Positions 4,445 to 27,819 of a stretch of DNA of 59,567 nt are shown one piece after another (within the stretch, counting starts at the first letter, position 1; every line of letters starts with the position of its first letter). A model generated the notes under the pieces. That model had not been told where the DNA came from. It saw only the letters and a list, made by a program, of their open reading frames with translations, and did no database searches. The position numbers were made by a program, and so were the translations under genes. This DNA comes from an uncultured Piscirickettsiaceae bacterium (GTDB taxonomy: Bacteria; Pseudomonadota; Gammaproteobacteria; GCF-002020875), in contig CAYFNH010000003.1 in NCBI GenBank assembly GCA_964344435.1, positions 1 to 59,567 of the forward strand, written 5' to 3'.

Positions 4445-5944
4445 TTACTCCTGCAACCTGGGTAACAACAGTGCCAGCCGATAGTGTGCCTCGGCATACT
4501 CCTTGTTGAGCTTGATGGCGGTCTCCAGTGACATCTGTGCCTTGCGGAAGTCCCCCATCTTCTCCAGCACCAGCGCCAGATGGTAGTAGGCGTTGGGGAA
4601 TTTTGGATTGATATTGATCGCCTTGGTGAACATACTGACTGACTCATCCAGCTCGGGCTTGGTGACCGGGGTACCATCGGCGGCTACCTGCAGCCCACCC
4701 CCCAGCAGTTTTGCCAGCTCATAGTAGGCCATGGCATGACTATTATCGATATCGATCGCCACAGTATAGTACTTGCAGGCAGACTCATATTCCTCCGGGT
4801 CACGCATCAGTAATGCCAGCCGATAGTAGGCATCGGCAAAATTGGGATCGATGGCAATTGCTTTCTCGAAGTTGCTCTTGGCTTCCACCAGCTCATCATG
4901 ACGCACCAGCAACAGCCCCAGGTGGTAGTGACCCAAGGCATGCTCCTCACTCAGCTCAACGGTACGGTTGTAGTGGGTACGCGCCTCATCGTCTTCCCCC
5001 TCCTCTTCCAGCAGTAGCGCCAGATTGTAGTGGGCTTCCGGGAATTCGGGCTTGATCTCGATGGTCTTGAGGAAATACTCCCGTGCAGTAGCCAGATCGC
5101 GCTGACTATATTGCAGCATCGCCAACTGGAAGTACGTCTGCTCATCCTCCGGGTAGTACTCTATCGATTTCTTGAAGTTCTCCAGTGCCAATGTCGGCTC
5201 ATTCAGCTCTTCCAACAGCATCGCCAGCTGGAAGTAGGCCTTGGCATACCCGTTATCGAGGCTGATGGCCTGCTCCAGCATACTGCGTGCCTCGTCCAGC
5301 GCCTCTCGCTTCTTCAGCATCAGACCAAGATTGTAGTAGGCCTTGGCATATTCCGGATCGATTTCAACCACCCGGCGCAGCAGCTGCTCCGCCTCCTCCG
5401 GCTCAGGCTCCAGTAGCGGAGTACCATCGGTAGTACTTTTGCTGCCGGTTGCCAGTAGTTTGGCCAGATAGTAATGGGCCTCACGATAGTCTGGATCGAT
5501 ATCAATCGCCGTAGTGTAGTTTTTGCGCGCCTCCTCGAACTCTTCCGGTGCAATCAGCAGGCGGGCAAGATTGTAGTAGGCGGGGGCATAGTTGCTGTCG
5601 AGCTCGATCGACTGAATCAGGTTGTACTTAGCCTCCTCGGTCGCCTCCATCTCCACAAACAGGGAGGCCATATTGGAGTAGGTCATCGCCTTTTCCGGAT
5701 CGATCTCTATCGACTGCTGGAAACGTTCACGGGCCTCTTCAAATTTCCTGGCGCGCTGCAACAGCAGACCAAGATAGCGATAGGCCTCGGCATGTTCAGG
5801 TACCAGCTCGATCACCTTCTCCAGATGGGGCTGAGCTCGATCATCCTCTCCATCGGCAACATAGAGCAGCGCCAGCTGAAAGCGAGCATCCGAGAAGTCC
5901 GGATTGATCTCAATCGCCTTTTCCAGGTGTTCTTTTGGATTCAT
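4445..5944 (-). CDS. Cytoplasmic all-TPR protein (about 13-14 34-aa TPRs)
   Basis: Repeated A(Y/H)(Y/F)xLAxLL...AIEIDP(D/E) units; no signal peptide; 19 bp downstream of the cyclase. Confidence 0.85.
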   Translation of the reverse strand: MNPKEHLEKAIEINPDFSDARFQLALLYVADGEDDRAQPHLEKVIELVPEHAEAYRYLGLLLQRARKFEEARERFQQSIEIDPEKAMTYSNMASLFVEMEATEEAKYNLIQSIELDSNYAPAYYNLARLLIAPEEFEEARKNYTTAIDIDPDYREAHYYLAKLLATGSKSTTDGTPLLEPEPEEAEQLLRRVVEIDPEYAKAYYNLGLMLKKREALDEARSMLEQAISLDNGYAKAYFQLAMLLEELNEPTLALENFKKSIEYYPEDEQTYFQLAMLQYSQRDLATAREYFLKTIEIKPEFPEAHYNLALLLEEEGEDDEARTHYNRTVELSEEHALGHYHLGLLLVRHDELVEAKSNFEKAIAIDPNFADAYYRLALLMRDPEEYESACKYYTVAIDIDNSHAMAYYELAKLLGGGLQVAADGTPVTKPELDESVSMFTKAININPKFPNAYYHLALVLEKMGDFRKAQMSLETAIKLNKEYAEAHYRLALLLPRLQE

Positions 5945-5963
5945 TGCGCTATCTCCACAGCCG

Positions 5964-8237
5964 TTACTTGGATGTCAGTACCCAGACACCATCCCACTCA
6001 CCCTCGGGTGGGTTGGCCTTCATGTGTTCACAACGCTCGATGTACATCTGTGAAGGCTTGTCCTTATCGTAACACTTCAACGACTCCTGGAACTGCCCAA
6101 TCGCGGCATCCCAGTTGGCTTCGTTCCAGTACTTGATTCCATTATTGAACAGACCCACTGCATCAATCATGTTGGGGAAGCTCTCGTTGTCATGGTAGTC
6201 AAGCACCTCGTACACACCGACCGGCTCGGTCTTGCCCTTGACGATTACATTATCGACCTTACGGGTGCGGTAGGTGCCCTTGCAGGCATCCAAGGTATAG
6301 TTGCTGACCAGAATGTGGGCGCCATACTGTTTACAGGCACTCTCCAGGCGAGCCGCCGTATTCACACCATCACCAATCACGGTGTAGTCCATGCGTTTGG
6401 AGGAGCCGATATTACCGGAGACAATGGCATCGGTATTTACCCCCATACCGTGATCGATCGGTGGCTTGCCCTCGGAGGCACGCTTGGCATTGAAGACCTT
6501 GAGTTCCGTCATCATTCCGATCGCGGCACGCACACCACGATCAGGGTCATCCTCATGAGGGATCGGGGTGCCGAAGATCGCCATGATCGCATCCCCGATA
6601 AACTTGTCGAGCATTCCCCCCTGGCCGGTGATCACATCGACCATCACCTCGAAGTATTCGTTGAGCAGTTTTACGGTACCCTGTGCACCCAACTCTTCGG
6701 TAATGGTGGTAAAGCTGCGCACATCGGAGAAGAGTACGGTACCAATTCCCTGTTTGCCGCCCATGATATCTTCCTGGCTCTGGTCGTCCAGCAGTTGATC
6801 CGCCAGGGTTGGATCCATGTAGCGGGACATGGTGGATTTCATCCGCTTCTCGCTGCTGATATCCTCCAGCATAATCATCGAACCCAGATTCTCTCCCTCA
6901 CTCCCCTTCAATGGCAGCAGGGTGATATTGAGCGAGACCGCCTCTTCGCCAAAAGTCAGTTCACGATCCGGCAGGATATCAATATCCTCTACCGTCTCCA
7001 GCTTGTCCGCCAGCCACTGATTGGCCTCACTACTGAAGAATTCGACCGCATTCTGCCCAATCACCTCATCCATCCGGTAGATCTTCATCATATTGATGCC
7101 GGACTGGTTACAGGTGGCAATCTTGCCCTCGTTGATGGTGATCACCCCGTTACTCATCGAGGAGAGAATGCTCTCGTTGTAGTTCATGGTGTTCTGTACA
7201 TCGGCAAAGAGCTTGGCATTCTCGATACCGATGGAGATCTGCGAGGTGAATGCCTTGAGCCGCTTCTCATCCTCGTCGGTAAAGACGCCGCCATGCTTGT
7301 TGAGCACCTGACTGACACCGATCACCTTGCCCTCTTTATTGATAACCGGAACGCAGAGCACGGAACGGGTGAAGTAACCGGTCTGCTTGTCGAAGGTGGG
7401 GTTAAAGCGCAAATCGGCATAGGCATAGGGAATATTCATCACCTCGCCACTCTGGAACACCGCTCCGGCAATTCCCATATGGTTGGGAAAGCGGATCACA
7501 TCCTTCTTGCCCAGCCCCTCACCCACCTCGGTGTAGAGTTCGTTGGTGGACTCGTCATTGATGAAGAGGGTGGAACGGTCGGCATCCAACATGGTGGTGA
7601 TGGTGGTCATGATCTTCGCCAGCAACGGGCTCAGCTCGATCTCCGAGGAGATCTGCGAAACCACATCGAGGAACTCCAGCTCCTGTTTACGTGAGTTCTC
7701 GATCTGCTCAACGATCACATTACCCTGAATGGCGACCGCCGCCTGCATCGTCATCGATTCCAGCAGCCCCAGATCTTGATCCGTGAATTCACCATCCATC
7801 TTGTTGAGAATCTGCGAAACACCGATGGTCTCCCCGTTTGGGGTACGCAGGGGCGCACAGAGAATACTCTTGGTACGGAACCCGGTACGCATATCGACCG
7901 ACTTGTCAAAACGATCATCGGAGTAGGCGTCGTTAATCACCACCCCTTCATCATTACTGAAGGCCCAGCCTGCAATACCCTTGGTGTTGAGGATACGGAT
8001 TTCACGGGTAAAACTTCCCTGAGCGATACGGGAGTAGAGCTCCCCGGTATGTTCATCATTGAGGAAGATGGTGCCACGCTCGGCATTGATGGTGGTTGTG
8101 GTCAGGTTGACCAACCGCCCCAGCGCATCGTCCAAGCTCTTGCTGGTCGCCAGATCATTGGTGACCTTGAGCAGCATCTCCAGGAAGTGTTCCCGTTTAT
8201 CAAAGCGCTCATCCAGGTCCGAATTATAGGTCATCAT
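5964..8237 (-). CDS. Soluble class III adenylate cyclase, GAF-GAF-PAS-cyclase (CyaB-like) with a helical C-terminal tail
   Basis: Two GAF domains with NK..F...D(E) signatures; catalytic motifs FSDVRSFT, DKFIGDA and DYTVIGDGVNTAARLE (Lys plus Thr, adenylyl class IIIb). Confidence 0.9.
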   Translation of the reverse strand: MMTYNSDLDERFDKREHFLEMLLKVTNDLATSKSLDDALGRLVNLTTTTINAERGTIFLNDEHTGELYSRIAQGSFTREIRILNTKGIAGWAFSNDEGVVINDAYSDDRFDKSVDMRTGFRTKSILCAPLRTPNGETIGVSQILNKMDGEFTDQDLGLLESMTMQAAVAIQGNVIVEQIENSRKQELEFLDVVSQISSEIELSPLLAKIMTTITTMLDADRSTLFINDESTNELYTEVGEGLGKKDVIRFPNHMGIAGAVFQSGEVMNIPYAYADLRFNPTFDKQTGYFTRSVLCVPVINKEGKVIGVSQVLNKHGGVFTDEDEKRLKAFTSQISIGIENAKLFADVQNTMNYNESILSSMSNGVITINEGKIATCNQSGINMMKIYRMDEVIGQNAVEFFSSEANQWLADKLETVEDIDILPDRELTFGEEAVSLNITLLPLKGSEGENLGSMIMLEDISSEKRMKSTMSRYMDPTLADQLLDDQSQEDIMGGKQGIGTVLFSDVRSFTTITEELGAQGTVKLLNEYFEVMVDVITGQGGMLDKFIGDAIMAIFGTPIPHEDDPDRGVRAAIGMMTELKVFNAKRASEGKPPIDHGMGVNTDAIVSGNIGSSKRMDYTVIGDGVNTAARLESACKQYGAHILVSNYTLDACKGTYRTRKVDNVIVKGKTEPVGVYEVLDYHDNESFPNMIDAVGLFNNGIKYWNEANWDAAIGQFQESLKCYDKDKPSQMYIERCEHMKANPPEGEWDGVWVLTSK

Positions 8238-9054
8238 ACTCCTCCAGTTTATTTCGCAGAGTCATAATTGTCTGTTGTAGCTGTACCACATCATTATTGA
8301 GTGCCCGGCGTTCCGCCTGCACCTTGTCTTCACAGAGCGCCTTGCCACGCTCCAACTCTTCGCGCAACCGGCCAATGGTAGCCATATGCTGCTTGATCTC
8401 TTTATTGCCCGCCGAAACCGCCTTCTGGATACGATCCTGCTCCAACTGTTTCTGACGCTCGGTCTCGTCTCGCAGAGATTGAATCATCTGCTTGAACTGG
8501 GCAATCTCCTTGTTGCCCGCCGAGACTGCCTTCTGGATGCGCTCCTGCTCCTTCTCTTTCTGCCGTTCGAGCTCATCACGCAGTGACTGCACCATATTGC
8601 GAAACTGGTGGGTCTCCTTGTTGGCGGCAGAGACCGCCTTCTGTACCCGCTCCTCCTCCAGCCCCTTCTGTCGCTCCATCTCATCACGCAGTGACTGGAT
8701 CATGCTCTTGAACTGGGCGATCTCCTTGTTGCTGGAAGAAACCGCCTTCTGGATACGCTCCTGCTCTTTCTCTTTTTGACGCTCCAGCTCATCTCGCAGT
8801 GATTGCACCATATTGCGAAACTGGTGGGTCTCCTTGTTGGCGGCAGAGACTGCCTTCTGCACCCGCTCCTCTTCGATCCCCTTCTGTCGCTCCATCTCAT
8901 CACGCAGCGACTGAATCATGGTCTTGAACTGGTGGCTCTCCTTGTTGGCAGCGGTACGCACCATCTGTACCGCCTCCTCCTTGGCCACCTCGCCACGCTC
9001 CAGGTTGTCACGCAAAATGGTGATGGTCTGCTTCAGATGAGCAACCTCAATCTC
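8224..9054 (-). repeat. Intragenic 108-bp tandem repeat (about 7.7 units) with a near-identical 216-bp higher-order duplication
   Basis: Units start at residues 18, 54, 90, 126, 162, 198, 234 and 270; shadow ORFs 8484-8687 and 8700-8903 are near-identical and offset by 216 bp. Confidence 0.85.
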
Positions 9055-9105
9055 CAGTTCACGGTTCAGTACCGTAAGCTTCTTTTTTTTCTGTTCCGCA
9101 CTCAT
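8224..9105 (-). CDS. Coiled-coil protein built of 36-aa tandem repeats
   Basis: NKE..QF..M.QSLRDE.ERQK..E.ER.QKAVS unit in exact 36-residue register; the stop overlaps the cyclase start by 14 bp. Confidence 0.8.
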   Translation of the reverse strand: MSAEQKKKKLTVLNRELEIEVAHLKQTITILRDNLERGEVAKEEAVQMVRTAANKESHQFKTMIQSLRDEMERQKGIEEERVQKAVSAANKETHQFRNMVQSLRDELERQKEKEQERIQKAVSSSNKEIAQFKSMIQSLRDEMERQKGLEEERVQKAVSAANKETHQFRNMVQSLRDELERQKEKEQERIQKAVSAGNKEIAQFKQMIQSLRDETERQKQLEQDRIQKAVSAGNKEIKQHMATIGRLREELERGKALCEDKVQAERRALNNDVVQLQQTIMTLRNKLEEYDDL

Positions 9106-9217: not shown

Positions 9218-10564
9218 CTAACGCTCTCTCAAGGCACTCTGTTGCGCCTTCAGAATCGGCTTCAAGAGGTAATCCAGTACCGTTTTCTGCCCCGTCAACA
9301 GCTCTACCGTTGTGGTCATCCCGGTGATGATGGGTAACGGATCCTCCTCACTGCCCAGCGCATTTTTCTCGGTACGCAACCGCACTCGGTAGTAGCGCTC
9401 CCCCTTCTCATCCACAATGGTGTCGGGGCTGATCTGCTCCAACTGAGCAGGAATGCCGCCATAGATGGTGGGATCGTAAGCGGTGAACTTGACCATCGCC
9501 TGCTGATCCGGGCGCAGAAAGCCGATATCGGATGGACGGATTCGGGCCTCGATCAGCAGTTGATCATTGAGTGGCACCACCTCCATGATCTCCATCCCCG
9601 GCTGGATCACCCCACCGATGGTGGTGACTTGAATCCGTTTTACTTCGCCATAAACCGGTGAGCGGATCTCGGTACGCTGCAGTCGGTCATTGAGGGTATT
9701 CTGCTGTTCCAGAGTGCGCGAAAGCATCGCCTTTGCCTCACTCAGCTCCTGGGTTGCCTGCGCTGCAAAGGAGCGGTGCTCTCCCTCCACCTTGCGCTCA
9801 ATCTCTTCGATGGCCGCCTCGATACGGGGGATCGCATTCTGGTTGGACTCATACTCGGTCTTCAAGCTGTGCAGTTCGCGCTCCAGACGGGCAAGATCCC
9901 GTTTCAGGCGCACCAGCTCGATCTCCGGCATCACCTTGATCTTGCGTACCCGCTCGGCAATCTCCATCTCTTTCTGTGCGTTTTCATATTCGGACTTGGA
10001 GAGCTGCAGACCCTGCTCCAGATTGCGAAGATTAACTTCGCGCTCCCTCAACTCCTGTTCACGCTGCTGGCGCTGTGCACTCAAGACCTCCAGAGCCGTA
10101 TCCAGTTCGGACTGGCGCACCTGATAGTTGGCCTCTTCACTGCTGGCAAAGTCGGGCTGTTCGTCGAGCACCTCCTGTGGGGGTTGATAGGTTTCACCAC
10201 TGGCCTCGGCCTCGAGGCGGGCGATCTTGGCCTTCAGATAGAGTGACTCCAGCCGGTTCTGCTTGGCCTCGGAGATGTACTGGGTGCCGGAGAGACGGAT
10301 AACCACCTGCCCTTTCTCGACAATCTCTCCCTCCTTGACCAGGATCTCCTCGACTATTCCCCCTTCCAGATTCTGCACAATCTGCACCTGTGAGGATGGG
10401 ATCACCCGCCCTTCACCACGGGTTACCTCATCCAGTACCGCCCAGTTGGCCCAGTAGAGTGCTACCCCAATGACCACCACCACCGAGATCAGCAAGAGAT
10501 GATTCAAGGGCCGGATGCGGTTGCTGGAGACCTTGGTCCACTCCTCGTAGCTGGTTTTTGCCAT
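9218..10564 (-). CDS. HlyD-family type I secretion periplasmic adaptor (LapC/PrtE-like)
   Basis: N-terminal TM, LDEVTRGEGRVIP..VQNLEGG, long coiled coil, IRSPVYG, C-terminal TVLDYLLKPI...ALRER. Confidence 0.92.
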   Translation of the reverse strand: MAKTSYEEWTKVSSNRIRPLNHLLLISVVVVIGVALYWANWAVLDEVTRGEGRVIPSSQVQIVQNLEGGIVEEILVKEGEIVEKGQVVIRLSGTQYISEAKQNRLESLYLKAKIARLEAEASGETYQPPQEVLDEQPDFASSEEANYQVRQSELDTALEVLSAQRQQREQELREREVNLRNLEQGLQLSKSEYENAQKEMEIAERVRKIKVMPEIELVRLKRDLARLERELHSLKTEYESNQNAIPRIEAAIEEIERKVEGEHRSFAAQATQELSEAKAMLSRTLEQQNTLNDRLQRTEIRSPVYGEVKRIQVTTIGGVIQPGMEIMEVVPLNDQLLIEARIRPSDIGFLRPDQQAMVKFTAYDPTIYGGIPAQLEQISPDTIVDEKGERYYRVRLRTEKNALGSEEDPLPIITGMTTTVELLTGQKTVLDYLLKPILKAQQSALRER

Positions 10565-10860: not shown

Positions 10861-12996
10861 TTACCCCTTCTCGGTGTGAGTCCAGACGCCATCCCAGTCA
10901 GCCGCTGGTGGGTTGTCGATAAAGTGCTGACAACGCTCCACGTAGGTGATGGAGGGGCCATCGCTTTCGAGGATGGTGAGCGCCTTCTCGAAGAGCTGCT
11001 TAGCCGCCACGAAATCCATCTCTTTGTATTTCTGCAGCCCCTGCAGATAGATCGGCACCACATCGGCCATTGGTCCACTGGTCTGGTTCTTGCGGTCAAT
11101 CACATCATAGACGGTGACCGGCTCCTTCTTGCCCACCACGCGGATACGATCCAGCTCACGGGTATCAATATTGTCCTTGGCCTGTTCGTAGGTACTCTCG
11201 GAGATCATCGAGTAGTTCTTGTAGAACTTGTTGGCCCCTTCCAGACGCGCCGCGAGATTCACCGAGTCTCCCATCATGGTGTAGTCCATACGCTGCTGGG
11301 AACCCATGTTACCAACAATCATCGGTCCGGTATTGACACCCATCCGCACCCGGAACTCCACCGGCAACCAATCCTTCTCGATCTGCTCCTGACGGAACGG
11401 CACCAGGAACTTCTGCTGGTCGATGATACTGTAACAGGCACGGGTGGCGTGGTCTGGCTGCTCCAGTGGCGCCCCCCAGAAGGCGATAATCGCATCTCCT
11501 TCGAACTTGTCGATGGTACCGCCGTGATCCGCAATGATGTCACACATGGCCGTCAGGTACTCATTGAGCAGTGCCACCAGCTCTGCCGGGGTGATCTTCT
11601 CGGAGATGGTGGAGAAACTGGCCACATCGGAGAAGAATGCGGTCATCTCGCGGCTCTCTCCACCTAGGGACATCTTGGAGGGGTCTTTCACCAGCGCATC
11701 GACCACGTCAGGAGAGAGGTACTGCCCGAACGCAGCAGTCACAAACCCCTTTTGGTCACGCTCCACCAGATAGTGGCGCAGATTGATCACCAGATAGGAG
11801 AGGAAGGCCGCTACCAGCACATAGCTCATGGAGAAGACCACTCCCTGATCGATATAGAGCTTGCCAGCGGCATAGATATATCCGCTCAACAACAGTGCAG
11901 TGACTGCAAAACTGATAGCGGGGGTAGAGATCATGCTAACCAGCAGCATCGCCACCATGACCGCCATCAACACCACAAACTCCTGCTCTTGTGAGGCGGG
12001 CTGCAGTGGAGTACCTCGCATCATGGTGTGAATTGCATCGGCGATGATCTCCACTCCGTAGACCATGCCCACCGGGGTATCAAACCAGTCATGAGAGACC
12101 TCCGAGGTATCCCCAACCACCACGATCTTGTCCTGGAACAGGAAAGAGAGCTCTTCCAACTCCTCCATGGCGATCTCCTGCTCCTCCTGTGGATCCTCCA
12201 TGCCTTCAAACAGGTACGGCAGATAAGGCCGCAACACTGTCATCGCACTGATAGAGGCATCGGTCTGGCTCAGAAAGGAGGCCCCCATTGTCAGTGAGGG
12301 GAAATCGATATGGAACTGGTTGTGATGATCAAGCGGGACTCTCAGCTCTCCTATGAGCAGATACTTCTGCCCCTCCACCTCGGTCAGCACCGGCTCGACA
12401 TCGTAGTACATCGCCAGCGCCTGAACCGCGAATGGCCAGCCATCCTCCATCTCGATGGTATCGTCCCGCACCCGTAGCTTGGAGAGGCTGGTGATGATCG
12501 AGCTGGAGGAGGTGATATTGGTATAGCCGCTCTTTGCAGAGCCATGATAGGCCTTGGTGGGATAGTTCATCCCCGTGGCCACATCCTCGTCATTGATCTG
12601 GGCCTGTGATACCAGCAGAGAGCTGCCGGTCCCTTTCAGCAGTTTGGCGGCCTTCTCATCCTCTCCGTAGGAGCTGGGGAAGTCAAACAGTACGTCAAGT
12701 GCAATCACCTTGGCCCCCAAGTCGTGAAGTGCACTGGCCATGGTGGCAATATCGGTACGACGTAGCGGGAAGCTGCGATACTCGTCAAAGAAGGCCTCGT
12801 CCATATTGAGGACAACAACCTGATCCTTGGAGAAGCCGGTCTGCTCCTCGTCTCCATAGGACATCCTCAAGATCTGACGAACCGAGAGGGTCTGCTCCTC
12901 GAGCAGGGCAAACGACTCGTTGTACTCTGCAGGAATCATCGCCATAAACAGCACGATGGTGATCAGTATGTCATAACGTCCCAGAATTTTTTTCAA
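10861..12996 (-). CDS. Membrane CHASE2-domain adenylate cyclase (class III)
   Basis: N-terminal TM, CHASE2 motifs (FPLRR, VIALDVLF, KIVVVG, TPVG..YGVEI.A), three TMs, FFSDVASFS, DKFEGDA and DYTMMGDSVNLAARLEG; TTG start with a GGAGG RBS. Confidence 0.92.
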   Translation of the reverse strand: MKKILGRYDILITIVLFMAMIPAEYNESFALLEEQTLSVRQILRMSYGDEEQTGFSKDQVVVLNMDEAFFDEYRSFPLRRTDIATMASALHDLGAKVIALDVLFDFPSSYGEDEKAAKLLKGTGSSLLVSQAQINDEDVATGMNYPTKAYHGSAKSGYTNITSSSSIITSLSKLRVRDDTIEMEDGWPFAVQALAMYYDVEPVLTEVEGQKYLLIGELRVPLDHHNQFHIDFPSLTMGASFLSQTDASISAMTVLRPYLPYLFEGMEDPQEEQEIAMEELEELSFLFQDKIVVVGDTSEVSHDWFDTPVGMVYGVEIIADAIHTMMRGTPLQPASQEQEFVVLMAVMVAMLLVSMISTPAISFAVTALLLSGYIYAAGKLYIDQGVVFSMSYVLVAAFLSYLVINLRHYLVERDQKGFVTAAFGQYLSPDVVDALVKDPSKMSLGGESREMTAFFSDVASFSTISEKITPAELVALLNEYLTAMCDIIADHGGTIDKFEGDAIIAFWGAPLEQPDHATRACYSIIDQQKFLVPFRQEQIEKDWLPVEFRVRMGVNTGPMIVGNMGSQQRMDYTMMGDSVNLAARLEGANKFYKNYSMISESTYEQAKDNIDTRELDRIRVVGKKEPVTVYDVIDRKNQTSGPMADVVPIYLQGLQKYKEMDFVAAKQLFEKALTILESDGPSITYVERCQHFIDNPPAADWDGVWTHTEKG

Positions 12997-13143: not shown

Positions 13144-13179
13144 AAAAAAACCCACAGCCTGCAACTGCAGACTGTGGGT
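13144..13179 (-). terminator. Rho-independent terminator downstream of the CHAT/336-aa operon
   Basis: ACCCACAGCCTGCA-AC-TGCAGACTGTGGGT hairpin followed by T7 on the minus strand. Confidence 0.75.
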
Positions 13180-13213
13180 CGAGCCAACAGGCTTGAGAGG
13201 TTGTGGCGAGGTA

Positions 13214-21130: not shown

Positions 21131-21742
21131 CTACTTCCACCCTACTGCAAACAACGATTTCTTCGCCTTGCGCTTGCCCTTGACTATACTCAGCTTTGCC
21201 CCGGTAAAGTCTGCCCCCTCAATATTGGCACCACTAAAGTTTGAACTGCCAAGATCCACTCCACGGAAATTACTCCAACTCAAATCGGCACCGGAAAAGT
21301 CTACCCCCTTGACCTGCGCCCCCTGAAAATTGGCTGCCGCCAGATCTGCCTTGGTAAAGTTGGCGTATGAGAGATCCACCCCCTCAAAATTGAGCCCATA
21401 CCCCTTGAGCCCCTTGGCCGTCACCCCGTTCATATTGGCCCCCTTGAGGGTAGCCCCCGCAATCATCGCCCCGTTGAGAACAGCCATCTTCAAGTTGGCA
21501 TCCGAAAGATCCGCCTTTTTCAGGTTGGCCTTGGTAAGATTCTTGCGTCCCAGGTTGACCTTGATAAAGACGGCACCACTCAGATCACACTTCTTGCAGA
21601 CCTTCTTCCTCTTGGCCTTCTTCACATCCTTGGGCTTCGCCGCCCAGGCGACTGAGTCGACCACACCGGCCCCACCCAACAGCAGGGAACATACCGTCAG
21701 ATAGACCACTGCACCGATGTGAACTCTCTTTAACCGCATCAT
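21131..21742 (-). CDS. Exported, highly basic pentapeptide-repeat protein
   Basis: Signal-like N-terminus ending AWA, CKKCDLSGA, then about 24 A(D/N)(L/F)xx repeats. Confidence 0.88.
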   Translation of the reverse strand: MMRLKRVHIGAVVYLTVCSLLLGGAGVVDSVAWAAKPKDVKKAKRKKVCKKCDLSGAVFIKVNLGRKNLTKANLKKADLSDANLKMAVLNGAMIAGATLKGANMNGVTAKGLKGYGLNFEGVDLSYANFTKADLAAANFQGAQVKGVDFSGADLSWSNFRGVDLGSSNFSGANIEGADFTGAKLSIVKGKRKAKKSLFAVGWK

Positions 21743-21789: not shown

Positions 21790-22635
21790 CTAACTCTTCT
21801 TTTTCCGCTTCTTCTTGCGGCGCTTCTTCCTTTTCTTCTTCTTGTCGACCCGTTCCCCCCCCTGGACCTTGACTCGCTTCTGCCAGGCCGGGGCATTTTC
21901 ATCATCCTGATTGAACTCTACTGCCTTGTCGACCTTGATGATAACACGCCGGTTTTCCGCCTGGTTCGCCTTGATGGGGCGCCCGGTCTTATCCCGATTC
22001 GGTACCTTGGGAACCGAATCGGCAAAGGCACTCGCCTTGACCCGTTTGGGATCCATCCCATGATCGGTCATAAACTTCAATACATTGATCGCACGCACCG
22101 AGGAGAGTTCCCAGTTCGACGGAAATTTGGCTGTATTGATCGGCACATCATCGGTGTGCCCCTGCACCTCCATCTGTGCCCCATCCACCCTGTTAATCGC
22201 CCTTGCCAGCTGTGTTAGTACCGGCTTGATGGTACGTTGCAGCGTGGCAGAACCACTGGTAAAGAGTGAGTTATTGGCCAACTCCAACTCAAATCCCCCT
22301 GGAGTTTTGGTAACGCTGACAAACTCCTCTACCCCACGAGCAGCGACCATATCCTCCACCTTCTCGGCCGCCTTCTCCGCCTCACTTTTACCCTTCCCTT
22401 TACCTTCACCAGCCTCTGAGCCGGCCATCGGGGATTCGTGGATCGCAGGGACCGCAACACGGGCAAAGGCCTCCTTCATCCCTTCGGAGACCATACCAAA
22501 CTTGATCGGATCCCAGTGTGCCGTCGCCAACAGCATTACAAAGAACGCCATCAGCAGCGACATCATATCGGCGAAGGTTCCCATCAACTCATCGGGATCT
22601 TCACAAACTTCGCACTCTGGACACTTCTTGGCCAT
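21790..22635 (-). CDS. motB: MotB/PomB-family stator subunit with an OmpA-like peptidoglycan-binding domain
   Basis: MGTFADMMSLLMAFFVMLL TM with the conserved Asp; VQGHTDDVPI...NWELSSVRA; NRRVII. Confidence 0.88.
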   Translation of the reverse strand: MAKKCPECEVCEDPDELMGTFADMMSLLMAFFVMLLATAHWDPIKFGMVSEGMKEAFARVAVPAIHESPMAGSEAGEGKGKGKSEAEKAAEKVEDMVAARGVEEFVSVTKTPGGFELELANNSLFTSGSATLQRTIKPVLTQLARAINRVDGAQMEVQGHTDDVPINTAKFPSNWELSSVRAINVLKFMTDHGMDPKRVKASAFADSVPKVPNRDKTGRPIKANQAENRRVIIKVDKAVEFNQDDENAPAWQKRVKVQGGERVDKKKKRKKRRKKKRKKKS

Positions 22636-22675: not shown

Positions 22676-23458
22676 CTATTCCGCCACATCAAACCAGGCA
22701 GCCGGCGCCAGGAAACTGTTGAGCTTGTCCTGAATTTCACGCCCAGGACGCTGCTCTGCCAGCATGATAAACCCCTCCACCAGCAACATGTTACGAAAAC
22801 GGATCATCTCCTCCTTCTGCTGTAGCTTGACCGCCGCAGGCAGGAAGATCATCTGCGCAAAGATTACCCCGTAGAGCGTAGTCAACATCGCAACCGCCAT
22901 ACCGGCACCGAGTGCCGCCGGGTCACCACCCATGTTGCCCAACATCAGTACCAGTCCCACCAGGGTGCCGATCATTCCATAGGCCGGGGAGAGAGAGGAC
23001 ATCTTCTTGAGCACATCCACCTGAATGGTATTACGCTGAAAGGAGGTGGCATTGGCCGTCTCCAGCAATTCCCGCAGCTCTTCCCCCTTGTAGTTGGAAA
23101 GTACGAACTTGCCCCCTACAGCAAGAAAGGCATCCGTGGTGTCCGAACCCATCTCCTGCTCCAGGGCAACAACTCCCTGTGTTTGAACCACTTTTGCCCA
23201 CTCAATCATCTTCTGTACGTCTGCCATCAGAGAGAAGAAGTTGACCGTGGAGGCCTGAAACTGAGCCACCATCGCGCCAAAGGCGCGGTTTACATAGAGC
23301 GGTTGATAGGACATATACGAGCCGGCAATTGCACCACCCGCCACAATGGCCAGACTGGGCAGGTCGACAAAGACCGCCGGATTGTCCGTACTACTGAGGA
23401 TGGCCCCGAAAAAGATGCCGAAGCCTCCTAAAATTCCACCCAACGTTCCTAACGACAT
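22676..23458 (-). CDS. motA: MotA/PomA-family stator subunit
   Basis: VDLPSLAIVAGG; PAYGMIGTLVGLVLML; GMAVAMLTTLYG; 260 aa. Confidence 0.88.
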   Translation of the reverse strand: MSLGTLGGILGGFGIFFGAILSSTDNPAVFVDLPSLAIVAGGAIAGSYMSYQPLYVNRAFGAMVAQFQASTVNFFSLMADVQKMIEWAKVVQTQGVVALEQEMGSDTTDAFLAVGGKFVLSNYKGEELRELLETANATSFQRNTIQVDVLKKMSSLSPAYGMIGTLVGLVLMLGNMGGDPAALGAGMAVAMLTTLYGVIFAQMIFLPAAVKLQQKEEMIRFRNMLLVEGFIMLAEQRPGREIQDKLNSFLAPAAWFDVAE

Positions 23459-23590
23459 AACAACTAACCTCTATTTGATTTCCAATCCCGTGACGTTTTT
23501 CTGACGCGATTTACTCGTAACACCATAGAGCAGAAAACATGCCACTATTTTATTTGTTCAAAATCAGCCATATACTGAAAATCATTTCCC

Positions 23591-23628
23591 AAAATAAAAA
23601 GGGAGGCTTCAATTCAGAGGCCTCCCTT
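23591..23628 (-). terminator. Rho-independent terminator downstream of the cNMP-binding gene
   Basis: AAGGGAGGC...GCCTCCCTT stem followed by TTTTATTTT on the minus strand. Confidence 0.7.
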
Positions 23629-23646: not shown

Positions 23647-24003
23647 CTAGCCCGCCTTGGACTGCAACATCTGCTGCATTCGGCGAATCAGGCTCAGGAC
23701 AATGGCACGCATAATCGGAGGACTCTTTCCCAGCATCATGTTCACATCTTTGCGCGTCACCTGCATGATCTCGGTGTACTCCGTGGCCCGGATGGTGGCA
23801 CTACGCTTGTCATCAGCCGAGAGAATCGCCAGCTCACCAAACACCTCACCCTTGCCCAACTGGGCAAGTACCAGCCGATCTCCATCGCTTTGCTCAATAT
23901 AGACCTCAACCGCCCCTTCACGGATCACCCCGGCCCATTCGCCACGCATCCCCTGCTTGAAGACCTCTTCATTGGCCGAGAATTTTTTTAATGTAGCCGC
24001 CAT
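23647..24003 (-). CDS. Standalone cyclic-nucleotide-binding domain protein (no HTH)
   Basis: VFKQG, GAVEV, phosphate-binding cassette FGELAILSADDKRSATIRA, C-helix; 118 aa. Confidence 0.85.
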   Translation of the reverse strand: MAATLKKFSANEEVFKQGMRGEWAGVIREGAVEVYIEQSDGDRLVLAQLGKGEVFGELAILSADDKRSATIRATEYTEIMQVTRKDVNMMLGKSPPIMRAIVLSLIRRMQQMLQSKAG

Positions 24004-24025: not shown

Positions 24026-25588
24026 TTATTGTTGTTCTGCATCCTGCTTGCTGTCGGATGACGCCCTGCCAAAACCACCGCCACCTGGGGTAGTTATCGT
24101 CAACTCATCCCCCCGCTTGACCTGTAGAGAGCATTTTGAGGAGAGCCTTAGCTCTCCCAGTCGATTCTCACCACTTTTTCCGGGCCCGCCACCATTCAGC
24201 CCCCATGGAGAGGAGGTTCTACGCTCGGTAAGCAGCGTCACCGAGGCAGGCTGCAGAAAATGGAAGGACCGGCAGAGCCCATCTCCCCCCACATGCTCGC
24301 CTGCCCCACCAGAACCCCGACGAATCTGGTAGCGGCCAATCCGTACCGGGATCGACATCTCCACCACCTCCACCGGGGTATTGAGCGTGTTGGTCATGTG
24401 GGTCTGCAGCGCCGAGCAGCCGGGAGAGAATGGACTGGCCCCCATGCCGCCCCCCAAGGTCTCATAATAGTCCCAGTGGCCACCGTCTATCGTACCTCCC
24501 ATGGCGAGGTTGTTCATGGTTCCCTGGCTTGCGGCTGTCATTCGCTGAGGAATAGCCTGGGCCAGTGCTCCCATCACCACATCCACCACCCGCGAACTGG
24601 TCTCGACATTGCCTGCAGCAACCGCTGCCGGACGCCGGGCATTGAGCAGACCCCCCACCGGGGCATGAATCGATATAGGATAAAAACAGCCTGCTGCAGC
24701 CGGCGTCTGTGGAGGCATCAGGCTGCGAAAAACGTAATAGACGCCAGCAGCGGCAACCGACAGCGGGCAGTTTATATTGCCCTCGGTCTGCTCTGCGCTA
24801 CCGCTAAAATCAACTTCGATACGCCCCTCTGCGGCGGTAATTGCTACCACAATCGGTAGCCTCTCCCCCTCACTCCCCTCCATCTCATCAGCAAAGCGAT
24901 AACAACCATCAGGGATCTCACGCAGTGTCTGTAGCGATAGCTGCTCAGCATAGCGGTTGAGCGCATCCAGCCCCTGACGGTAACAGGAGAACCCATACCT
25001 CTCTATCCACTGCGAAAGCCGCTGGATCCCGGCCCGATTGGCACTGATCTGTGCCTCAAAATCGCCCTGCGACCCATCCGGATTGCGCAGCTGTGAAAGC
25101 AGTTGCTGGTAAAAGGGTTGTTGAATCTCCCCCCCGCGCAGCAGGTGAGTAGGGGGGATCACCACCCCCTCCTCCTCCAGAGTATTGGAGAGAGGCATCG
25201 AACCGGGACTTTTTGCACCGATGTCGGCATGGTGCGCACGATTGACCACAAACCCCAGCAGCTGCTGCTGGAGAATCAGCGGTGAGATCATGGTGACATC
25301 CGGCAGATGGGTTCCACCCAGGAAAGGGTCATTGACTACAACCAGGTCACCCGCCTGCCACTCAATATCAGAGACAATATCGCGCATGGCATAGGCCATA
25401 CTGCCCAGATGAACCGGAATATGAGCTGCCTGCGCGCACAGCGCCCCCTCCGCATCGAAGATGGCGCACGAGTAGTCGAGTCGGTCCCGAATGTTGGGCG
25501 AGAAAGCGGCCCGGCGCAACACCGCACCCATCTCGTCACAGACCGCCTCAATTCGGCTTGAAAAGATCGTTAAATCGACCGCATCCAT
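24026..25588 (-). CDS. Hydantoinase B / 5-oxoprolinase family subunit
   Basis: AFSPNIRDRLDYSCA, AAHIPVHLGSM, NDPFLGGTHLPD, THMTNTLNTPVE, TPGGGGFG. Confidence 0.92.
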   Translation of the reverse strand: MDAVDLTIFSSRIEAVCDEMGAVLRRAAFSPNIRDRLDYSCAIFDAEGALCAQAAHIPVHLGSMAYAMRDIVSDIEWQAGDLVVVNDPFLGGTHLPDVTMISPLILQQQLLGFVVNRAHHADIGAKSPGSMPLSNTLEEEGVVIPPTHLLRGGEIQQPFYQQLLSQLRNPDGSQGDFEAQISANRAGIQRLSQWIERYGFSCYRQGLDALNRYAEQLSLQTLREIPDGCYRFADEMEGSEGERLPIVVAITAAEGRIEVDFSGSAEQTEGNINCPLSVAAAGVYYVFRSLMPPQTPAAAGCFYPISIHAPVGGLLNARRPAAVAAGNVETSSRVVDVVMGALAQAIPQRMTAASQGTMNNLAMGGTIDGGHWDYYETLGGGMGASPFSPGCSALQTHMTNTLNTPVEVVEMSIPVRIGRYQIRRGSGGAGEHVGGDGLCRSFHFLQPASVTLLTERRTSSPWGLNGGGPGKSGENRLGELRLSSKCSLQVKRGDELTITTPGGGGFGRASSDSKQDAEQQ

Positions 25589-25653
25589 GGATCACGCTCC
25601 GCAACAACAGGGCGAGAGAGTATAGCAACCAATGGGCTGCAGAGATCCGGCAA

Positions 25654-27819
25654 TCAGGCGCTGTACTGCTCCTCCAGCACCTTCCACAACAGAATGGGGA
25701 TCTCTCGAAGCAGAGTACCGGAAACTCGATAGACATCTGCCTGCTCCAGCACCTTGATACGACGCAGCTCTTCCTGCTCAAGGATGGCTCGCTTCTGACC
25801 AAAGTGGTCTCCTCGCTGCAACAGCCCCCCCGCCTCATCCTGTAACTGACCGGAAGAGATCAGGTAGAGGGCATCCTGCTGGGTAACAATCTCCTCATCA
25901 ACCTCATACGTCCTCAGCTCCATCTCATGAGCAATCCGGTTCTTGAGCGAGTAGGAGATCGCCTCACTGAAAAGCTCCATCTCGTTGAGCAGGGTTCTAC
26001 GGGTCTCAAGCTCTTCGATCTCACCAAACAGTTCGTTTTGTGAAACAAAAACCGTGAACAGCGAACTGGGAATCCGCAACGCCTGTACAAAGTTGGTGGT
26101 TCGATAGGTGTAGGGTGAAGGCAGCTTGTGCAACCCGGAGTATTCACCAATAAAGGTACCCGCATAGAGGGTACAGTTGACCCCGTTCTCTGCACTCAAC
26201 AGCTCTACATTACCGGTCAGGGTCAGATAGATCTCACTGTTGACTGCCCCTTCCTTGAGGATGATCGACTCGGGATTAAACAGCTCCACCTTGTTGTTCA
26301 ACAAGATACGCATGTAGTAGTCCGATGCGGAGGGGAAGTAGGTCTGCAGATACTCGATCGCGAAACGCCAGGCATAGTTCTGATAGACCGGGATCAGATG
26401 ATCCACCGCACCAAACGGCGCACCGGAACCGATCTCTTTCTGCCGGTCGGTATAGGGCACCGCAGAGTGAGAAAGAATAATCCGCTCGGAGACATCATCG
26501 GCAAAGTCCTCGATATCTCCATGGATCATGCCACCACCAATATCAACCTTCTTGGTGTTGGCCGGCTCCAGATAGTCATTCTTTACCTTCTCGATCGTCG
26601 CCTGACTCAGCCCGGGCTTACCCTCCTCCTCAAGCATTCCATCAATCACGCTGAAGGCTGCAATATCGGCGAAGTGGGCGTAGGTGTGATAACCATCCTC
26701 CCACAGGGAGCGGAAGCGCATGATGGTGGTCTCCACCGGGTGTGGAGAGAAGATCGGACGCACCTCGAGGCCATCGATATTATTCCACTCATCCTCAACC
26801 ATATCATTGATATTGAAACACTTCTCGAAGAAGGACTCCTCCACCGAGAGCAGTGCACAGAGCTTTTTGGTAACCGATGCACGCACCAACGGGGTTGCGT
26901 AGTACTCAATACGGTGACCGGAACGCGCCAGGGTTGCCAGGCCACCAAAGTGGTCATCATGGGAGTGGGTGTGGAACAGTCCGTGCACCTCGTTCAGGCT
27001 GATACCCAACGCCTCCAGATTCTCATGCACATTGGGGCCGACATCGATCATGTAGACCTTGCCCTGAAACATCAGGATGGAAGACATGCTGGGGCGGTTG
27101 GCATCCCAACCATCCCCCTGACCGGAGTGGAGTACCGAGAAATAGCCCCGCTTGATATTATGAAAATCGAGTGGATAGGGCACCTCAAATCCCTGCCCTG
27201 GCGGCAGATTGAGATCCACCGTTGCCGTCTCACCCTGATAGGCAAACTCGAATACGTTCTGTTGCAGACGCCGAACGGTGACCCCCCCCAGAATCTCGAC
27301 CGTCTCACTTCCTTCAACCATACGAGGGTCAAGCAGATCCTCGGTTGGACGGATCGCACCAAAGGCGAAGCGCAGCTTCATCGCCATCAGCTCATCCGCT
27401 TGCGCCTCCTCGACCCCGGTCTCCATGATCTCCTCCTTGGAGACCAGACCATAGTTGCCACGGTAGATATACTGCATCTGCGCCTCAACCTGATCCGGCG
27501 CACCGATCAACAGGGGTTTCTGGCCGTTATTGTTGGGGTGCCCCGGGATGATCATCCCCTGGCGATAGAGCATCTGCAGTACCGGGAACTCTGCCAGACT
27601 GGAAAACTCCCCATTCTGTAACAGCACATCCGAAAGCAGAATGGCGTTGGGCCCCAACTCGAACTTCACCCCATCGAGTTCACTCCAGACAATCAGGCCA
27701 CGTTTCATCAGGTGTTTCACGCTGTCTGCAGGACAACCACAGAGAATGCGCAGATCCGCCTCCGGCACCTCGATCCACTTGACTCCAGATGCCACCTCAA
27801 TCAACTTAATCTTACGCAT
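25654..27819 (-). CDS. Metallo-beta-lactamase-fold hydrolase fused to two C-terminal cNMP-binding-like domains
   Basis: FHTHSHDDHFGG (HxHxDH), SPHPVET, HFAD, IILSHS; C-terminal IILKEG...GTFIGEY and GDHFGQ. Confidence 0.8.
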   Translation of the reverse strand: MRKIKLIEVASGVKWIEVPEADLRILCGCPADSVKHLMKRGLIVWSELDGVKFELGPNAILLSDVLLQNGEFSSLAEFPVLQMLYRQGMIIPGHPNNNGQKPLLIGAPDQVEAQMQYIYRGNYGLVSKEEIMETGVEEAQADELMAMKLRFAFGAIRPTEDLLDPRMVEGSETVEILGGVTVRRLQQNVFEFAYQGETATVDLNLPPGQGFEVPYPLDFHNIKRGYFSVLHSGQGDGWDANRPSMSSILMFQGKVYMIDVGPNVHENLEALGISLNEVHGLFHTHSHDDHFGGLATLARSGHRIEYYATPLVRASVTKKLCALLSVEESFFEKCFNINDMVEDEWNNIDGLEVRPIFSPHPVETTIMRFRSLWEDGYHTYAHFADIAAFSVIDGMLEEEGKPGLSQATIEKVKNDYLEPANTKKVDIGGGMIHGDIEDFADDVSERIILSHSAVPYTDRQKEIGSGAPFGAVDHLIPVYQNYAWRFAIEYLQTYFPSASDYYMRILLNNKVELFNPESIILKEGAVNSEIYLTLTGNVELLSAENGVNCTLYAGTFIGEYSGLHKLPSPYTYRTTNFVQALRIPSSLFTVFVSQNELFGEIEELETRRTLLNEMELFSEAISYSLKNRIAHEMELRTYEVDEEIVTQQDALYLISSGQLQDEAGGLLQRGDHFGQKRAILEQEELRRIKVLEQADVYRVSGTLLREIPILLWKVLEEQYSA

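Follow-up and report, generated by a model that had tools for sequence, protein, structure and literature searches.

The closest described counterparts of the system considered here come from several organisms. The Anabaena/Nostoc enzymes CyaB1 and CyaB2 are cyclases of class IIIb, activated by cyclic AMP (cAMP), with a GAF-GAF-PAS domain order. In magnetotactic bacteria, the gene of a CHASE2 adenylate cyclase comes after mtxA (PMC4439547). The Dictyostelium proteins GbpA and GbpB (PdeD and PdeE) are class IIb metallo-β-lactamase (MBL) phosphodiesterases that are activated by cyclic nucleoside monophosphates (cNMPs) at two C-terminal cyclic-nucleotide-binding (CNB) domains (PMC11988041), and Apyc1 is a phage anti-Pycsar cNMP phosphodiesterase. 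Here we compare with these systems a 23 kb block of genes (positions 4445-27819) from an uncultured marine gammaproteobacterium, located in a DNA stretch of 59,567 nucleotides (contig CAYFNH010000003.1 of assembly GCA_964344435.1) that we call the window. Little is understood of cAMP signalling in bacteria outside the CRP paradigm, and for its cAMP this small genome appears to rely on a pair of cyclases, a single canonical receptor (118 residues) and a lone phosphodiesterase candidate. Gene calls were taken from a listing of open reading frames (ORFs) and from Pfam and NCBIfam scans, and the four genes concerned are the following:

5964..8237, minus strand: predicted GAF-GAF-PAS adenylate cyclase of CyaB1/CyaB2 type (GAF-AC), 757 aa; two GAF domains, PAS_9 and Guanylate_cyc
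10861..12996, minus strand: predicted CHASE2 receptor adenylate cyclase (CHASE2-AC), 711 aa, class IIIb type; CHASE2 E 2e-29, Guanylate_cyc E 5e-20
23647..24003, minus strand: single-domain CNB protein, 118 aa; PF00027 E 7e-20
25654..27819, minus strand: protein with pseudo-MBL, MBL and two CNB-like domains (MBL-CNB), 721 aa; Lactamase_B and cNMP_binding

A clustered cAMP toolkit and its inheritance

The block holds the whole recognisable cAMP toolkit of the organism, and it is a vertically inherited accessory neighbourhood. In the genome assembly (2.45 Mb, 172 contigs, 97% complete), PF00211 has exactly two matches, both in the block and 4.9 kb apart, and PF00027 has six, of which two are in the block. 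Simulation gave a probability of 2.3e-4 for finding at least four of the eight cAMP-related domains within 23.4 kb, and of 0.004 for two cyclases within 5 kb. Thus, the only cyclases of the genome, its only canonical cAMP-type receptor and its only phosphodiesterase candidate lie within 1% of its length, and the genome is not uniformly rich in such genes, so that the clustering noticed by the original prediction is a true enrichment. Neither a class I cyclase nor CpdA was detected among the ten genus relatives searched. Note that clustering of cyclase and CNB genes is common in this class, with several examples met in genome searches.

The two cyclases had been announced as adenylyl-type class III enzymes, and this was borne out. 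Both match PF00211 (E 5e-21 and 75.4 bits for GAF-AC, E 5e-20 and 72.4 bits for CHASE2-AC, with a cut-off of 21.9 bits) and display the class III motifs FSDV, DKFxGD and MDYTxxGDxVNxAARLE, the VNxAARLE part giving the Asn/Arg pair. The catalytic sets are complete in both proteins, with the two metal-binding Asp (D505/D549 in GAF-AC, D457/D501 in CHASE2-AC), the adenine-specifying Lys/Thr of class IIIb (K545/T619 and K497/T573) and the transition-state Asn/Arg (N626/R630 and N580/R584). Residue roles are assigned here by motif; guanylate cyclases carry Glu/Cys at the adenine-specifying positions. Since both metal Asp, the Lys/Thr of class IIIb and the Asn/Arg pair are present, the adenylyl-type label is justified, and both genes are, on their residues, class III adenylate cyclases of the adenylyl-specific class IIIb that are predicted to make cAMP.

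The Pfam domains of GAF-AC (GAF 35-170, GAF 205-340, PAS 363-461, cyclase 500-672) follow the order of CyaB1 and CyaB2, with which it also shares an NKFDE-type GAF-B and the Lys/Thr class IIIb catalytic set. The closest solved structure to its tandem GAF is that of Anabaena CyaB2 with bound cAMP (1YKD, E 1.5e-37). The predicted pair of NKFDE-type GAF domains stands as a tandem with a complete motif in GAF-B (NK..F...DE; NKHGGVFTDEDE, residues 313-324), but not in GAF-A, which reads NKMDGEFTDQD (145-155) and then has Leu instead of the final Glu, a departure from CyaB1 and CyaB2. Unlike these enzymes, GAF-AC is found in a gammaproteobacterial metagenome-assembled genome (MAG) and is translationally coupled to a coiled-coil protein with 36-residue repeats. 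The stop of the coil ORF and the start of the cyclase overlap by 14 bases, and this pairing is kept in several lineages, a coil-like ORF also lying 5′ of the orthologue in two further genomes (G381 and G249) and at the metagenome locus L044. An exact look-up of the GAF cyclase in public assemblies gave no match. We propose GAF-AC as an amplifier, its stimulation by cAMP being predicted from the GAF tandem.

In CHASE2-AC, the CHASE2 domain is flanked by hydrophobic, transmembrane-like segments, as read from the sequence, and we propose this cyclase as the putative signal input of the system. As in the magnetotactic mtxA-CHASE2 cluster (MGR_0208 region, PMC4439547), an MtxA-like gene lies directly 5′ of the CHASE2 cyclase; unlike in that cluster, a TPR-CHAT gene precedes the pair, and an HlyD gene and the second cyclase follow it. 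The TPR-CHAT gene is 5′ of the MtxA-like gene and of the CHASE2 cyclase in every genus genome in which the region was recovered (G001, G002, G005, G006, G007, G009, G013 and G014). No magnetosome genes turned up in any search made here, so the MtxA-CHASE2 pair is not specific to magnetotactic bacteria. This corrects the picture of a family that was first described as magnetotactic-specific, since the pair occurs in a gammaproteobacterial MAG in which no magnetosome genes were met.

The standalone CNB protein of the original prediction was found again as the minus-strand ORF and not as the plus-strand ORF that overlaps the same site. Its phosphate-binding cassette FGELAILSADDKRSATIRA (residues 55-73) contains the CRP-type Glu and Arg-Ser-Ala (GE...RSA) with a Glu-to-Arg spacing of 10, the same as in the cassette of E. 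coli CRP, and on these residues it is the best candidate cAMP receptor of the genome. Its relatives were matched at genus level only. The genome has three CRP/FNR-type regulators, which score 36-62 bits against a CRP family cut-off of 266, so that none reaches it; two of them have no cassette Arg, and the third is FNR-like with an N-terminal Cys cluster. We also observed a 928-aa RND/MMPL-like transporter (C66:3730-6735 in G000, the genome of the window) with a C-terminal CNB domain and a near-canonical cassette FGEISSLAGVPRYSRV, which appears as the only other plausible cAMP receptor outside the window.

Contigs from ten genus genomes were searched by tblastn with all window proteins, and each family was also searched in all 15 genus genomes, the relatives being free-living marine MAGs. 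Seven genomes (G001, G002, G004, G005, G007, G013 and G014) carry the genes in the collinear order TPR, GAF-AC, coil, HlyD, CHASE2-AC, MtxA, CHAT, DUF1538, PII, PII, pentapeptide, MotB, MotA, CNB, HyuB, MBL-CNB and aminotransferase, with 63-97% amino-acid identity and contig breaks where expected. The parts around 18 kb and at 21-28 kb, whose linkage had been a point of doubt, are linked in every genus relative that has them. GAF-AC and MBL-CNB, though 20 kb apart, are both present in 8/8 genomes and both absent in 7/7, and the CNB protein and the MotA orthologue are both present in 11/11 and both absent in 4/4. The genomes that depart from the full set are the following:

G006 and G009: keep CHASE2-AC, the CNB protein and the MotA orthologue; without GAF-AC and MBL-CNB
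G003: keeps DUF1538-PII-PII, pentapeptide-MotB-MotA and two tandem CNB genes; without any cyclase
G008, G010, G011 and G012 (1.5-1.9 Mb): none of the block genes; G008 and G010 also without FliG

In G006, the full CHAT-MtxA-CHASE2 run and the CNB-MotAB-pentapeptide unit were seen, with no DUF1538 gene at the site. In the MotA tree, G003 and G006 fall inside the genus clade, beside the window copy, which suggests that GAF-AC and MBL-CNB were lost there, in at most one or two events.

The MBL-CNB protein as a candidate phosphodiesterase

The fusion of an MBL hydrolase with CNB domains, which the original prediction had described, was confirmed, and the possible degradation of cAMP depends on it. 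Its metal site is formed by HSHDDH at 285-290 (H285, H287, D289 and H290) together with H360, H382, D385, H433 and H451, and these ligands are invariant in 42/42 aligned homologues, which are 52-85% identical to the window enzyme. An AlphaFold2 model made with this 42-sequence alignment reached a pLDDT of 89 and a pTM of 0.90, and a model of residues 1-480 a pLDDT of 88.6. In Foldseek comparisons, the C-terminal half superposes on the tandem CNB domains of PKA-R and PKG, and the catalytic half is nearest to RNase Z, B. subtilis YhfI, Apyc1, PhnP and a nucleotide-bound Brucella MBL, with target-normalised TM values of 0.64-0.72. The long-form RNase Z ELAC2 spans both halves of the protein (TMq 0.55), from which MBL-CNB is read as a pseudo-MBL followed by an MBL. 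According to these models, the catalytic half is of the phosphodiesterase branch of the MBL superfamily. Residues 1-230 are the most conserved part of the family, with invariant Cys27, Cys29 and His36 (CGCPADSVKH), and in the model this N-terminal domain takes the form of a pseudo-MBL half that resembles the N-terminal portion of ELAC2.

The CNB fold itself was confirmed by Pfam (44 bits) and by the structural match to tandem CNB domains, while the canonical phosphate-binding cassette (Gly-Glu, Arg-Ser/Thr-Ala) is not found in either of them. Indeed, the first cassette, GEYSGLHKLPSPYTYRT, has Glu559 and Pro567 in register but Ser568 at the position of the canonical Arg, and the second domain has FGQ instead of FGE. 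R573 was considered as the cassette Arg and rejected, since alignment on Glu559 and Pro567 puts Ser568 there. Among curated phosphodiesterase models, PF23023 (Anti-Pycsar_Apyc1) matches the protein at E 0.006 and 16.6 bits, against a cut-off of 50, and no match to PF02112 or NF041851 is listed; distant homologues match the same Apyc1 model, the strength of these matches being unmarked. The family gave more than 3000 matches, remains 53-57% identical across Magnetococcus, Magnetospirillum and Desulfonema, and often carries a C-terminal hemerythrin domain. No experimental study of it was found in the literature.

GbpA and GbpB have in common with MBL-CNB an MBL domain with HxHxDH followed by two CNB domains and a predicted cytosolic location. 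Unlike them, the bacterial family has an additional, strongly conserved N-terminal pseudo-MBL with Cys27, Cys29 and His36, its first CNB domain in the window enzyme is without the phosphate-binding Arg, and many members add the hemerythrin domain. Apyc1 and the YhfI/RNase Z/PhnP group provide the nearest folds to the catalytic half, but these proteins are homodimers of ~250 aa without regulatory domains, whereas MBL-CNB is a single chain of pseudo-MBL, MBL and two CNB domains. Altogether, it is plausible that MBL-CNB is a cyclic-nucleotide phosphodiesterase acting in cAMP degradation, a candidate function that fits its residues and its modelled fold. Of the functions first proposed for the block, synthesis and sensing are well supported, and degradation is plausible on account of the intact MBL site, the fold clade, the GbpA/GbpB architecture and the fact that CpdA was not found in the genus. 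With its large number of members and high conservation, the MBL-CNB family is a good candidate for the missing class of bacterial cNMP phosphodiesterases.

Stator linkage and the other genes of the block

Stator and transporter genes are interleaved with the cAMP genes, as had been stated, with MotA/MotB at 21790-23458 (minus strand) and a DUF1538 transporter at 18487-20262 (plus strand). The MotA_ExbB channel protein is paired with a protein having MotB_plug and OmpA domains, and the genome has FliG (contig C6) and two further MotA/MotB sets (C1 and C5), which makes the window set an extra one. The MotP and PomA models of NCBIfam match the window MotA at E 1e-41, below their cut-offs, and all NCBIfam equivalog cut-offs were missed. 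The nearest relatives of this MotA outside the genus are 44-53% identical and mostly labelled Alphaproteobacteria. On its domains and relatives, the window MotA is an extra stator subunit of predicted alphaproteobacterial type.

Both cyclase types, HlyD and this MotAB subfamily are linked again in a second lineage. Three of six assembly contexts examined around these relatives have a divergent CHASE2 cyclase beside an ABC gene of type I secretion system (T1SS) type and HlyD, MotA and MotB genes, with a 273-aa MBL gene on the opposite strand, and many of 80 metagenome loci show the same arrangement. Four of these loci (L044, L045, L046 and L050) also contain a full-length GAF-GAF-PAS cyclase that is 57-62% identical to that of the window, with a coil-like ORF before one of them. 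The distant cyclase-stator loci form one MotA clade (support 99/97), apart from the clade that holds the genus of the window, and in this clade a cyclase is present at almost all loci whose upstream flank is long enough, and the 273-aa MBL at most of those that extend far enough. Across ten such loci (L031-L033, L040, L043-L047 and L050), all on marine contigs, we observed the order (coil), GAF-GAF-PAS cyclase, CHASE2 cyclase, T1SS ABC, HlyD, MotA, MotB, 273-aa MBL and S-adenosylmethionine (SAM) hydroxide adenosyltransferase, with ABC, HlyD, MotA and MotB closely spaced on one strand in an operon-like manner. These contigs are probably alphaproteobacterial. That these genes are linked a second time is the best reason to regard the left and right parts of the block as functionally connected, and its reach is limited by the unresolved deeper nodes of the MotA tree. 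A further caveat concerns HlyD: the window protein shares no more than ~33-37% identity with its counterpart 5′ of MotA in the distant cluster, it has no ABC partner gene adjoining, and a closer paralogue with an ABC partner sits on contigs C162/C65 of the genome. The C162 ABC protein, best orthologue of the cluster-type ABC, was rejected as partner of the window HlyD, since a different HlyD lies on C65 and no stator follows.

Some features of the distant cluster should be read separately. Since the 273-aa MBL also adjoins MotAB in sister loci that have no cyclase, its place beside the stator genes may reflect synteny within the lineage. No CNB gene was found beside MotA homologues in ~0.9 Mb of non-genus loci with a custom CNB profile, a narrow one that did not recover two CRP/FNR proteins of the window's genome itself. 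In L050, the C-terminal extension of the ABC protein was considered as a CNB domain and rejected as a low-complexity tail, and the sigma-54 element described below is absent from the distant cluster. Within other gammaproteobacterial families, GAF-AC orthologues were found in four, 56-59% identical and with the coil partner kept, and two or three of them have a CNB protein nearby; at two loci (L131 in G381 and L130 in G042), a CNB-domain gene lies directly beside the pair of coil and GAF-GAF-PAS cyclase. These cases give hints of a recurrent partnership between the GAF cyclase and CNB proteins.

The remaining features of the block are listed below:

4445..5944, minus strand: TPR protein, 499 aa, directly 3′ of the GAF cyclase; TPR families (Pfam)
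8224..9105, minus strand: repetitive coiled-coil protein, 293 aa, from ORF coordinates; stop overlaps the GAF cyclase start
9218..10564, minus strand: HlyD-family membrane-fusion protein, 448 aa; HlyD_3 E 5e-19
13149..13180, minus strand: terminator-like hairpin in the interval between the MtxA-like gene and the CHASE2 cyclase; 14-bp stem with 8 G-C pairs, T run
13214..14224, minus strand: MtxA-like protein, 336 aa; DUF7354 E 4e-28, MtxA_IG-like E 7e-15, MtxA_C E 1e-10
14298..18164, minus strand: TPR-CHAT protein, 1288 aa, first gene of the CHAT/MtxA/CHASE2-cyclase module; PF12770 CHAT E 8e-69 and TPR_12
18453..18468, no strand: palindrome TGTGACGTACGTCATT, two mismatches to the CRP consensus; probably the CRP-like site of the original prediction
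18487..20262, plus strand: fused double-DUF1538 membrane protein, UmpA+UmpB-like, 591 aa; PF07556 E 1e-105
20259..20615, plus strand: PII-like protein 1, 118 aa; PF00543 E 9e-8, 32.9 bits against a cut-off of 25
20626..20928, plus strand: PII-like protein 2, marginal, 100 aa; PF00543 E 0.017, 15.9 bits, below cut-off
21131..21742, minus strand: pentapeptide-repeat protein, 203 aa, last gene of the motAB unit; PF00805 E 2e-35
21790..22635, minus strand: MotB-like stator subunit, 281 aa; MotB_plug E 3e-12, OmpA E 3e-15
22676..23458, minus strand: MotA/PomA-like stator subunit, 260 aa; PF01618 E 1e-20
23530..23544, minus strand: sigma-54-type -24/-12 element TGGCATGTTTTCTGC (TGGCAT-N5-CTGC) 5′ of motA, read, like the next feature, from the sequence
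23591..23626, minus strand: hairpin GGGAGGC...GCCTCCC with a T run, 3′ of the CNB gene, likely intrinsic terminator
24026..25588, minus strand: hydantoinase B/oxoprolinase subunit (HyuB), 520 aa; PF02538 E 2e-186

The hairpin behind the CNB gene and the sigma-54 element divide this part of the block, so that MBL-CNB, HyuB and CNB form one same-strand run (three genes with gaps of 65 and 22 bp, MBL-CNB first and CNB last) and motA, motB and the pentapeptide gene another. An equivalent hairpin is kept in four relatives (G002, G004, G007 and G014), and TGGCA-N6/7-TGC 5′ of motA is kept in six genomes, that of the window included (G000, G001, G004, G006, G007 and G014), while the flanks diverge. 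A sigma-54-type promoter is an unusual class for stator genes. The pentapeptide gene follows motB in all genus genomes with the region recovered; its product has a hydrophobic N-terminal segment that looks, by eye, like a signal peptide, and a second copy, 79% identical, lies on contig C118. At the other end of the block, the position of the TPR gene is kept in six relatives (G001, G002, G004, G005, G007 and G013).

The DUF1538 protein matches the NCBIfam models UmpA (E 2e-59) and UmpB (E 1e-48), both below cut-off. UmpAB is a characterised Na+(Li+,K+)/H+ antiporter of DUF1538 type (PMC5484666), and its two parts correspond to the DUF1538 halves of the window protein, which, unlike UmpAB, are fused in one 591-aa protein; it is probably a cation/proton antiporter by these matches. 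Two PII proteins had been reported beside it: the first stands above the Pfam cut-off, and archaeal GlnB structures match it at E 5e-4, whereas the second falls below, though it adjoins the first in every genus genome, being 24% identical to it. SbtB is a cAMP-binding PII-like regulator encoded directly downstream of SbtA. The window PII-like genes likewise lie directly 3′ of a transporter gene, but unlike SbtB, their products are very divergent, and the DUF1538-PII unit persists without a cyclase, as in genome G003. DUF1538 is encoded a second time in the genome, on contig C72 (C72:6037-7805), where the UmpA- and UmpB-like parts are separate genes accompanied by a single PII-like gene. It is thus with this transporter family, and not with the cAMP block, that PII genes are associated, and the DUF1538/PII-like operon, tied to the block by proximity only, is most likely a bystander.

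HyuB was considered as a signalling part and rejected, since the gene of its partner HyuA lies at another site and G003 has both subunits in a fused form; it is most likely a metabolic passenger. HyuA and HyuB are on different contigs in most genus genomes, HyuA of the window's genome being at C1:1830-2660, and in G003 (C67) they form one 1249-aa ORF, with no B gene at the block site.

The CRP-like site of the original prediction could not be maintained. No site within one mismatch of TGTGA-N6-TCACA was found in 4445-27819, two-mismatch sites are rarer in the window than by chance (19 against 30.5 expected from shuffles), the candidate palindrome is only partly conserved in the genus, and no CRP/FNR protein reaches the family cut-off. 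In front of the DUF1538 gene, this palindrome follows a conserved TTGACC promoter and precedes the ribosome-binding site, and it looks like an operator or a hairpin of the 5′ untranslated region rather than a CRP site. It includes a 12-bp perfect palindrome, TGACGTACGTCA, and the orthologous sites of the genus partly keep TGACA-N2-TGTCA-like dyads.

Outside the block, the right half of the window is mostly housekeeping, as previously stated (argD-like aminotransferase, ornithine carbamoyltransferase, ThiC, UvrA, SecY and ribosomal proteins), but not entirely. At 33470-37334 (minus strand), a gene for a hybrid histidine kinase (PAS-HisKA-HATPase-REC-REC-Hpt) has that of a diguanylate cyclase (REC-GGDEF) behind it, and genes for cyclic di-GMP (c-di-GMP) signalling thus lie 6 kb from the cAMP block. 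On the left side, a gene for a large Big_9/cadherin (Ig/cadherin) adhesin is at 3-3755, and between it and the TPR gene lies a MazF/PemK-type toxin gene (3854-4192, minus strand) for which no antitoxin was identified.

Circuit, co-location and known systems

We consider it plausible, though unproven, and are slightly inclined to believe, that the parts of the block form a single compact and mostly post-translational cAMP circuit. In such a circuit, a periplasmic signal, probably shaped by the co-conserved TPR-CHAT and MtxA-like proteins, would act on the CHASE2 receptor cyclase, which would make cAMP. The CyaB1-type GAF-GAF-PAS cyclase would bind cAMP at its NKFDE-type GAF-B and amplify the signal, and the 118-aa CNB protein would be the receptor, with its effect exerted by contacts with other proteins, given that the CRP/FNR regulators all stay below the CRP family cut-off. 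The pseudo-MBL/MBL/2xCNB enzyme would hydrolyse the cyclic nucleotide and serve as the off-switch. As outputs, the extra MotAB stator, driven by sigma-54, and the HlyD-type fusion protein together with the adhesin close by would be likely, with a swim-or-stick decision as the consequence. A surface-sensing role, as originally suggested, would fit the neighbours (stator, HlyD-type protein, Ig/cadherin adhesin and periplasmic CHASE2 sensor), while nothing points to host sensing, the relatives being free-living marine MAGs. A wider proposal, which we hold to be quite improbable as a whole, is that cAMP controls swim-or-stick in place of, or alongside, c-di-GMP, here and independently in a marine, probably alphaproteobacterial clade. 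Control would be post-translational, the CHASE2/GAF two-cyclase amplifier acting on an auxiliary MotAB and T1SS-type HlyD machine, the CNB protein serving in this genus as an adaptor like a YcgR-type brake or clutch, and MBL-CNB representing a new class of bacterial second-messenger phosphodiesterase.

Several observations weigh against a single circuit, and most of them are what one would expect if the block were a co-location without a circuit, which is the main rival explanation and which we regard as possible though rather unlikely. The CHAT-MtxA-CHASE2 sensor, the coil-GAF cyclase pair, the DUF1538-PII unit, the extra stator and the MBL enzyme would then be independent modules, perhaps acquired from Alphaproteobacteria and inherited together, so that adjacency would be history. 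The block genes are spread over both strands in five or more transcription units, with the break between the CNB gene and motA marked by a terminator-like hairpin and a sigma-54-type promoter, and a metabolic gene, the housekeeping subunit HyuB, sits within the unit of phosphodiesterase candidate and receptor. Each module also occurs alone elsewhere: no cyclase lies within 10 kb of the MBL-CNB gene, and no neighbour is conserved, in Magnetococcus, Paramagnetospirillum and Desulfonema, so the phosphodiesterase-cyclase link is not universal, and the GAF-AC orthologues of the four other gammaproteobacterial families have no CHASE2 cyclase or MotAB neighbour within the available flanks. G003 keeps two CNB genes, MotAB and DUF1538-PII with no detectable cyclase, and G006 is without GAF-AC, MBL-CNB and DUF1538 at the site. 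Descent alone predicts collinearity inside one genus, and co-occurrence there is confounded by shared descent and genome reduction, the genomes without the genes being of 1.5-2.0 Mb. Moreover, sequencing runs that match the stretch are DNA metagenomes only, with no RNA run. Mere co-location does not, however, lead one to expect the sole cyclases, canonical receptor and phosphodiesterase candidate within 1% of the genome, nor both cyclase types with HlyD-MotAB in a separate MotA clade, nor the joint presence or absence of the two ends of the block (8/8 versus 0/7 genomes).

The off-switch of this circuit has a rival of its own, which we judge unlikely: there may be no degradation arm, MBL-CNB being an RNase Z-like nuclease or a hydrolase of 2′,3′-cNMP, a cyclic dinucleotide or a nucleoside derivative, with CNB-like domains that bind a ligand other than cAMP. 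Ser568 at the canonical Arg position makes cAMP binding and feedback at the first CNB domain doubtful, which also counts against the circuit, and FGQ in the second domain points in the same direction. Apyc1 is no better a match to the fold than RNase Z, an arylsulfatase and PhnP, the Pfam Apyc1 match is weak, the best tandem-CNB matches include trypanosome PKA-R subunits that bind nucleosides and not cAMP, and many family members carry hemerythrin domains and stand alone in the genome. On the other side, the architecture equals that of the cNMP-stimulated phosphodiesterases GbpA and GbpB, MBL-CNB shares the presence-absence pattern of the GAF cyclase throughout the genus and opens a close three-gene run that ends in the canonical CNB protein, the genus yielded no CpdA-type phosphodiesterase, and the distant homologues do match the Apyc1 model, at unmarked strength. 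An anti-phage defence of Pycsar type, in which the cyclases would signal infection to the CNB protein as effector sensor and CHAT would act as a death protease, appears to us highly improbable. Among the PADLOC models, those of PycC give matches to both cyclase domains (E 1e-23 to 1e-28) and those of Pycsar effectors to the CNB protein (E 9e-13), and CHAT-TPR proteins occur in defence systems, but the PADLOC matches are at domain level only, large sensory modules (CHASE2; GAF-GAF-PAS) and the adenine-type Lys/Thr are present in the cyclases, no TIR or membrane effector part is attached to the CNB protein, and MotA matches no ZorA model. The block thus lacks the compact pyrimidine cyclase in an operon with a CNB-TIR or CNB-transmembrane effector that marks Pycsar, and it is syntenic and vertically inherited between housekeeping genes rather than part of a variable defence island. 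With the circuit retained as the favoured reading, the expression "complete second-messenger hub" used for the block is nevertheless an overstatement, given the PII proteins tied to cAMP by proximity only, the discarded CRP site, the MBL-associated CNB domain without its Arg and the several transcription units.

A minimal and physically clustered cAMP system would be easy to reconstitute, and the cyclases beside HlyD-MotA-MotB in a second lineage give a concrete hypothesis, in which cAMP is tied to an auxiliary stator or to secretion. For surface sensing, Pseudomonas aeruginosa reportedly uses a cAMP network made of the class III cyclase CyaB, CpdA, Vfr and the polar cAMP-binding protein CbpA. 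This gammaproteobacterial set, with a membrane-associated class III cyclase, a dedicated phosphodiesterase and, besides any transcription factor, a further protein that binds cAMP, may be likened to the predicted set of the window. Unlike in P. aeruginosa, no Vfr/CRP-type regulator reaches the family cut-off here and CpdA is missing, the genes are clustered instead of dispersed, and the sensors are CHASE2 and GAF domains instead of MASE2 and Pil-Chp. Compared with all these systems, the parts are of known kinds or belong to an uncharacterised but already noticed family, and what is new is their specific combination, their exclusivity in a genome without a CRP-type regulator at cut-off, and the linkage of two cyclases, HlyD and MotAB in a second lineage.

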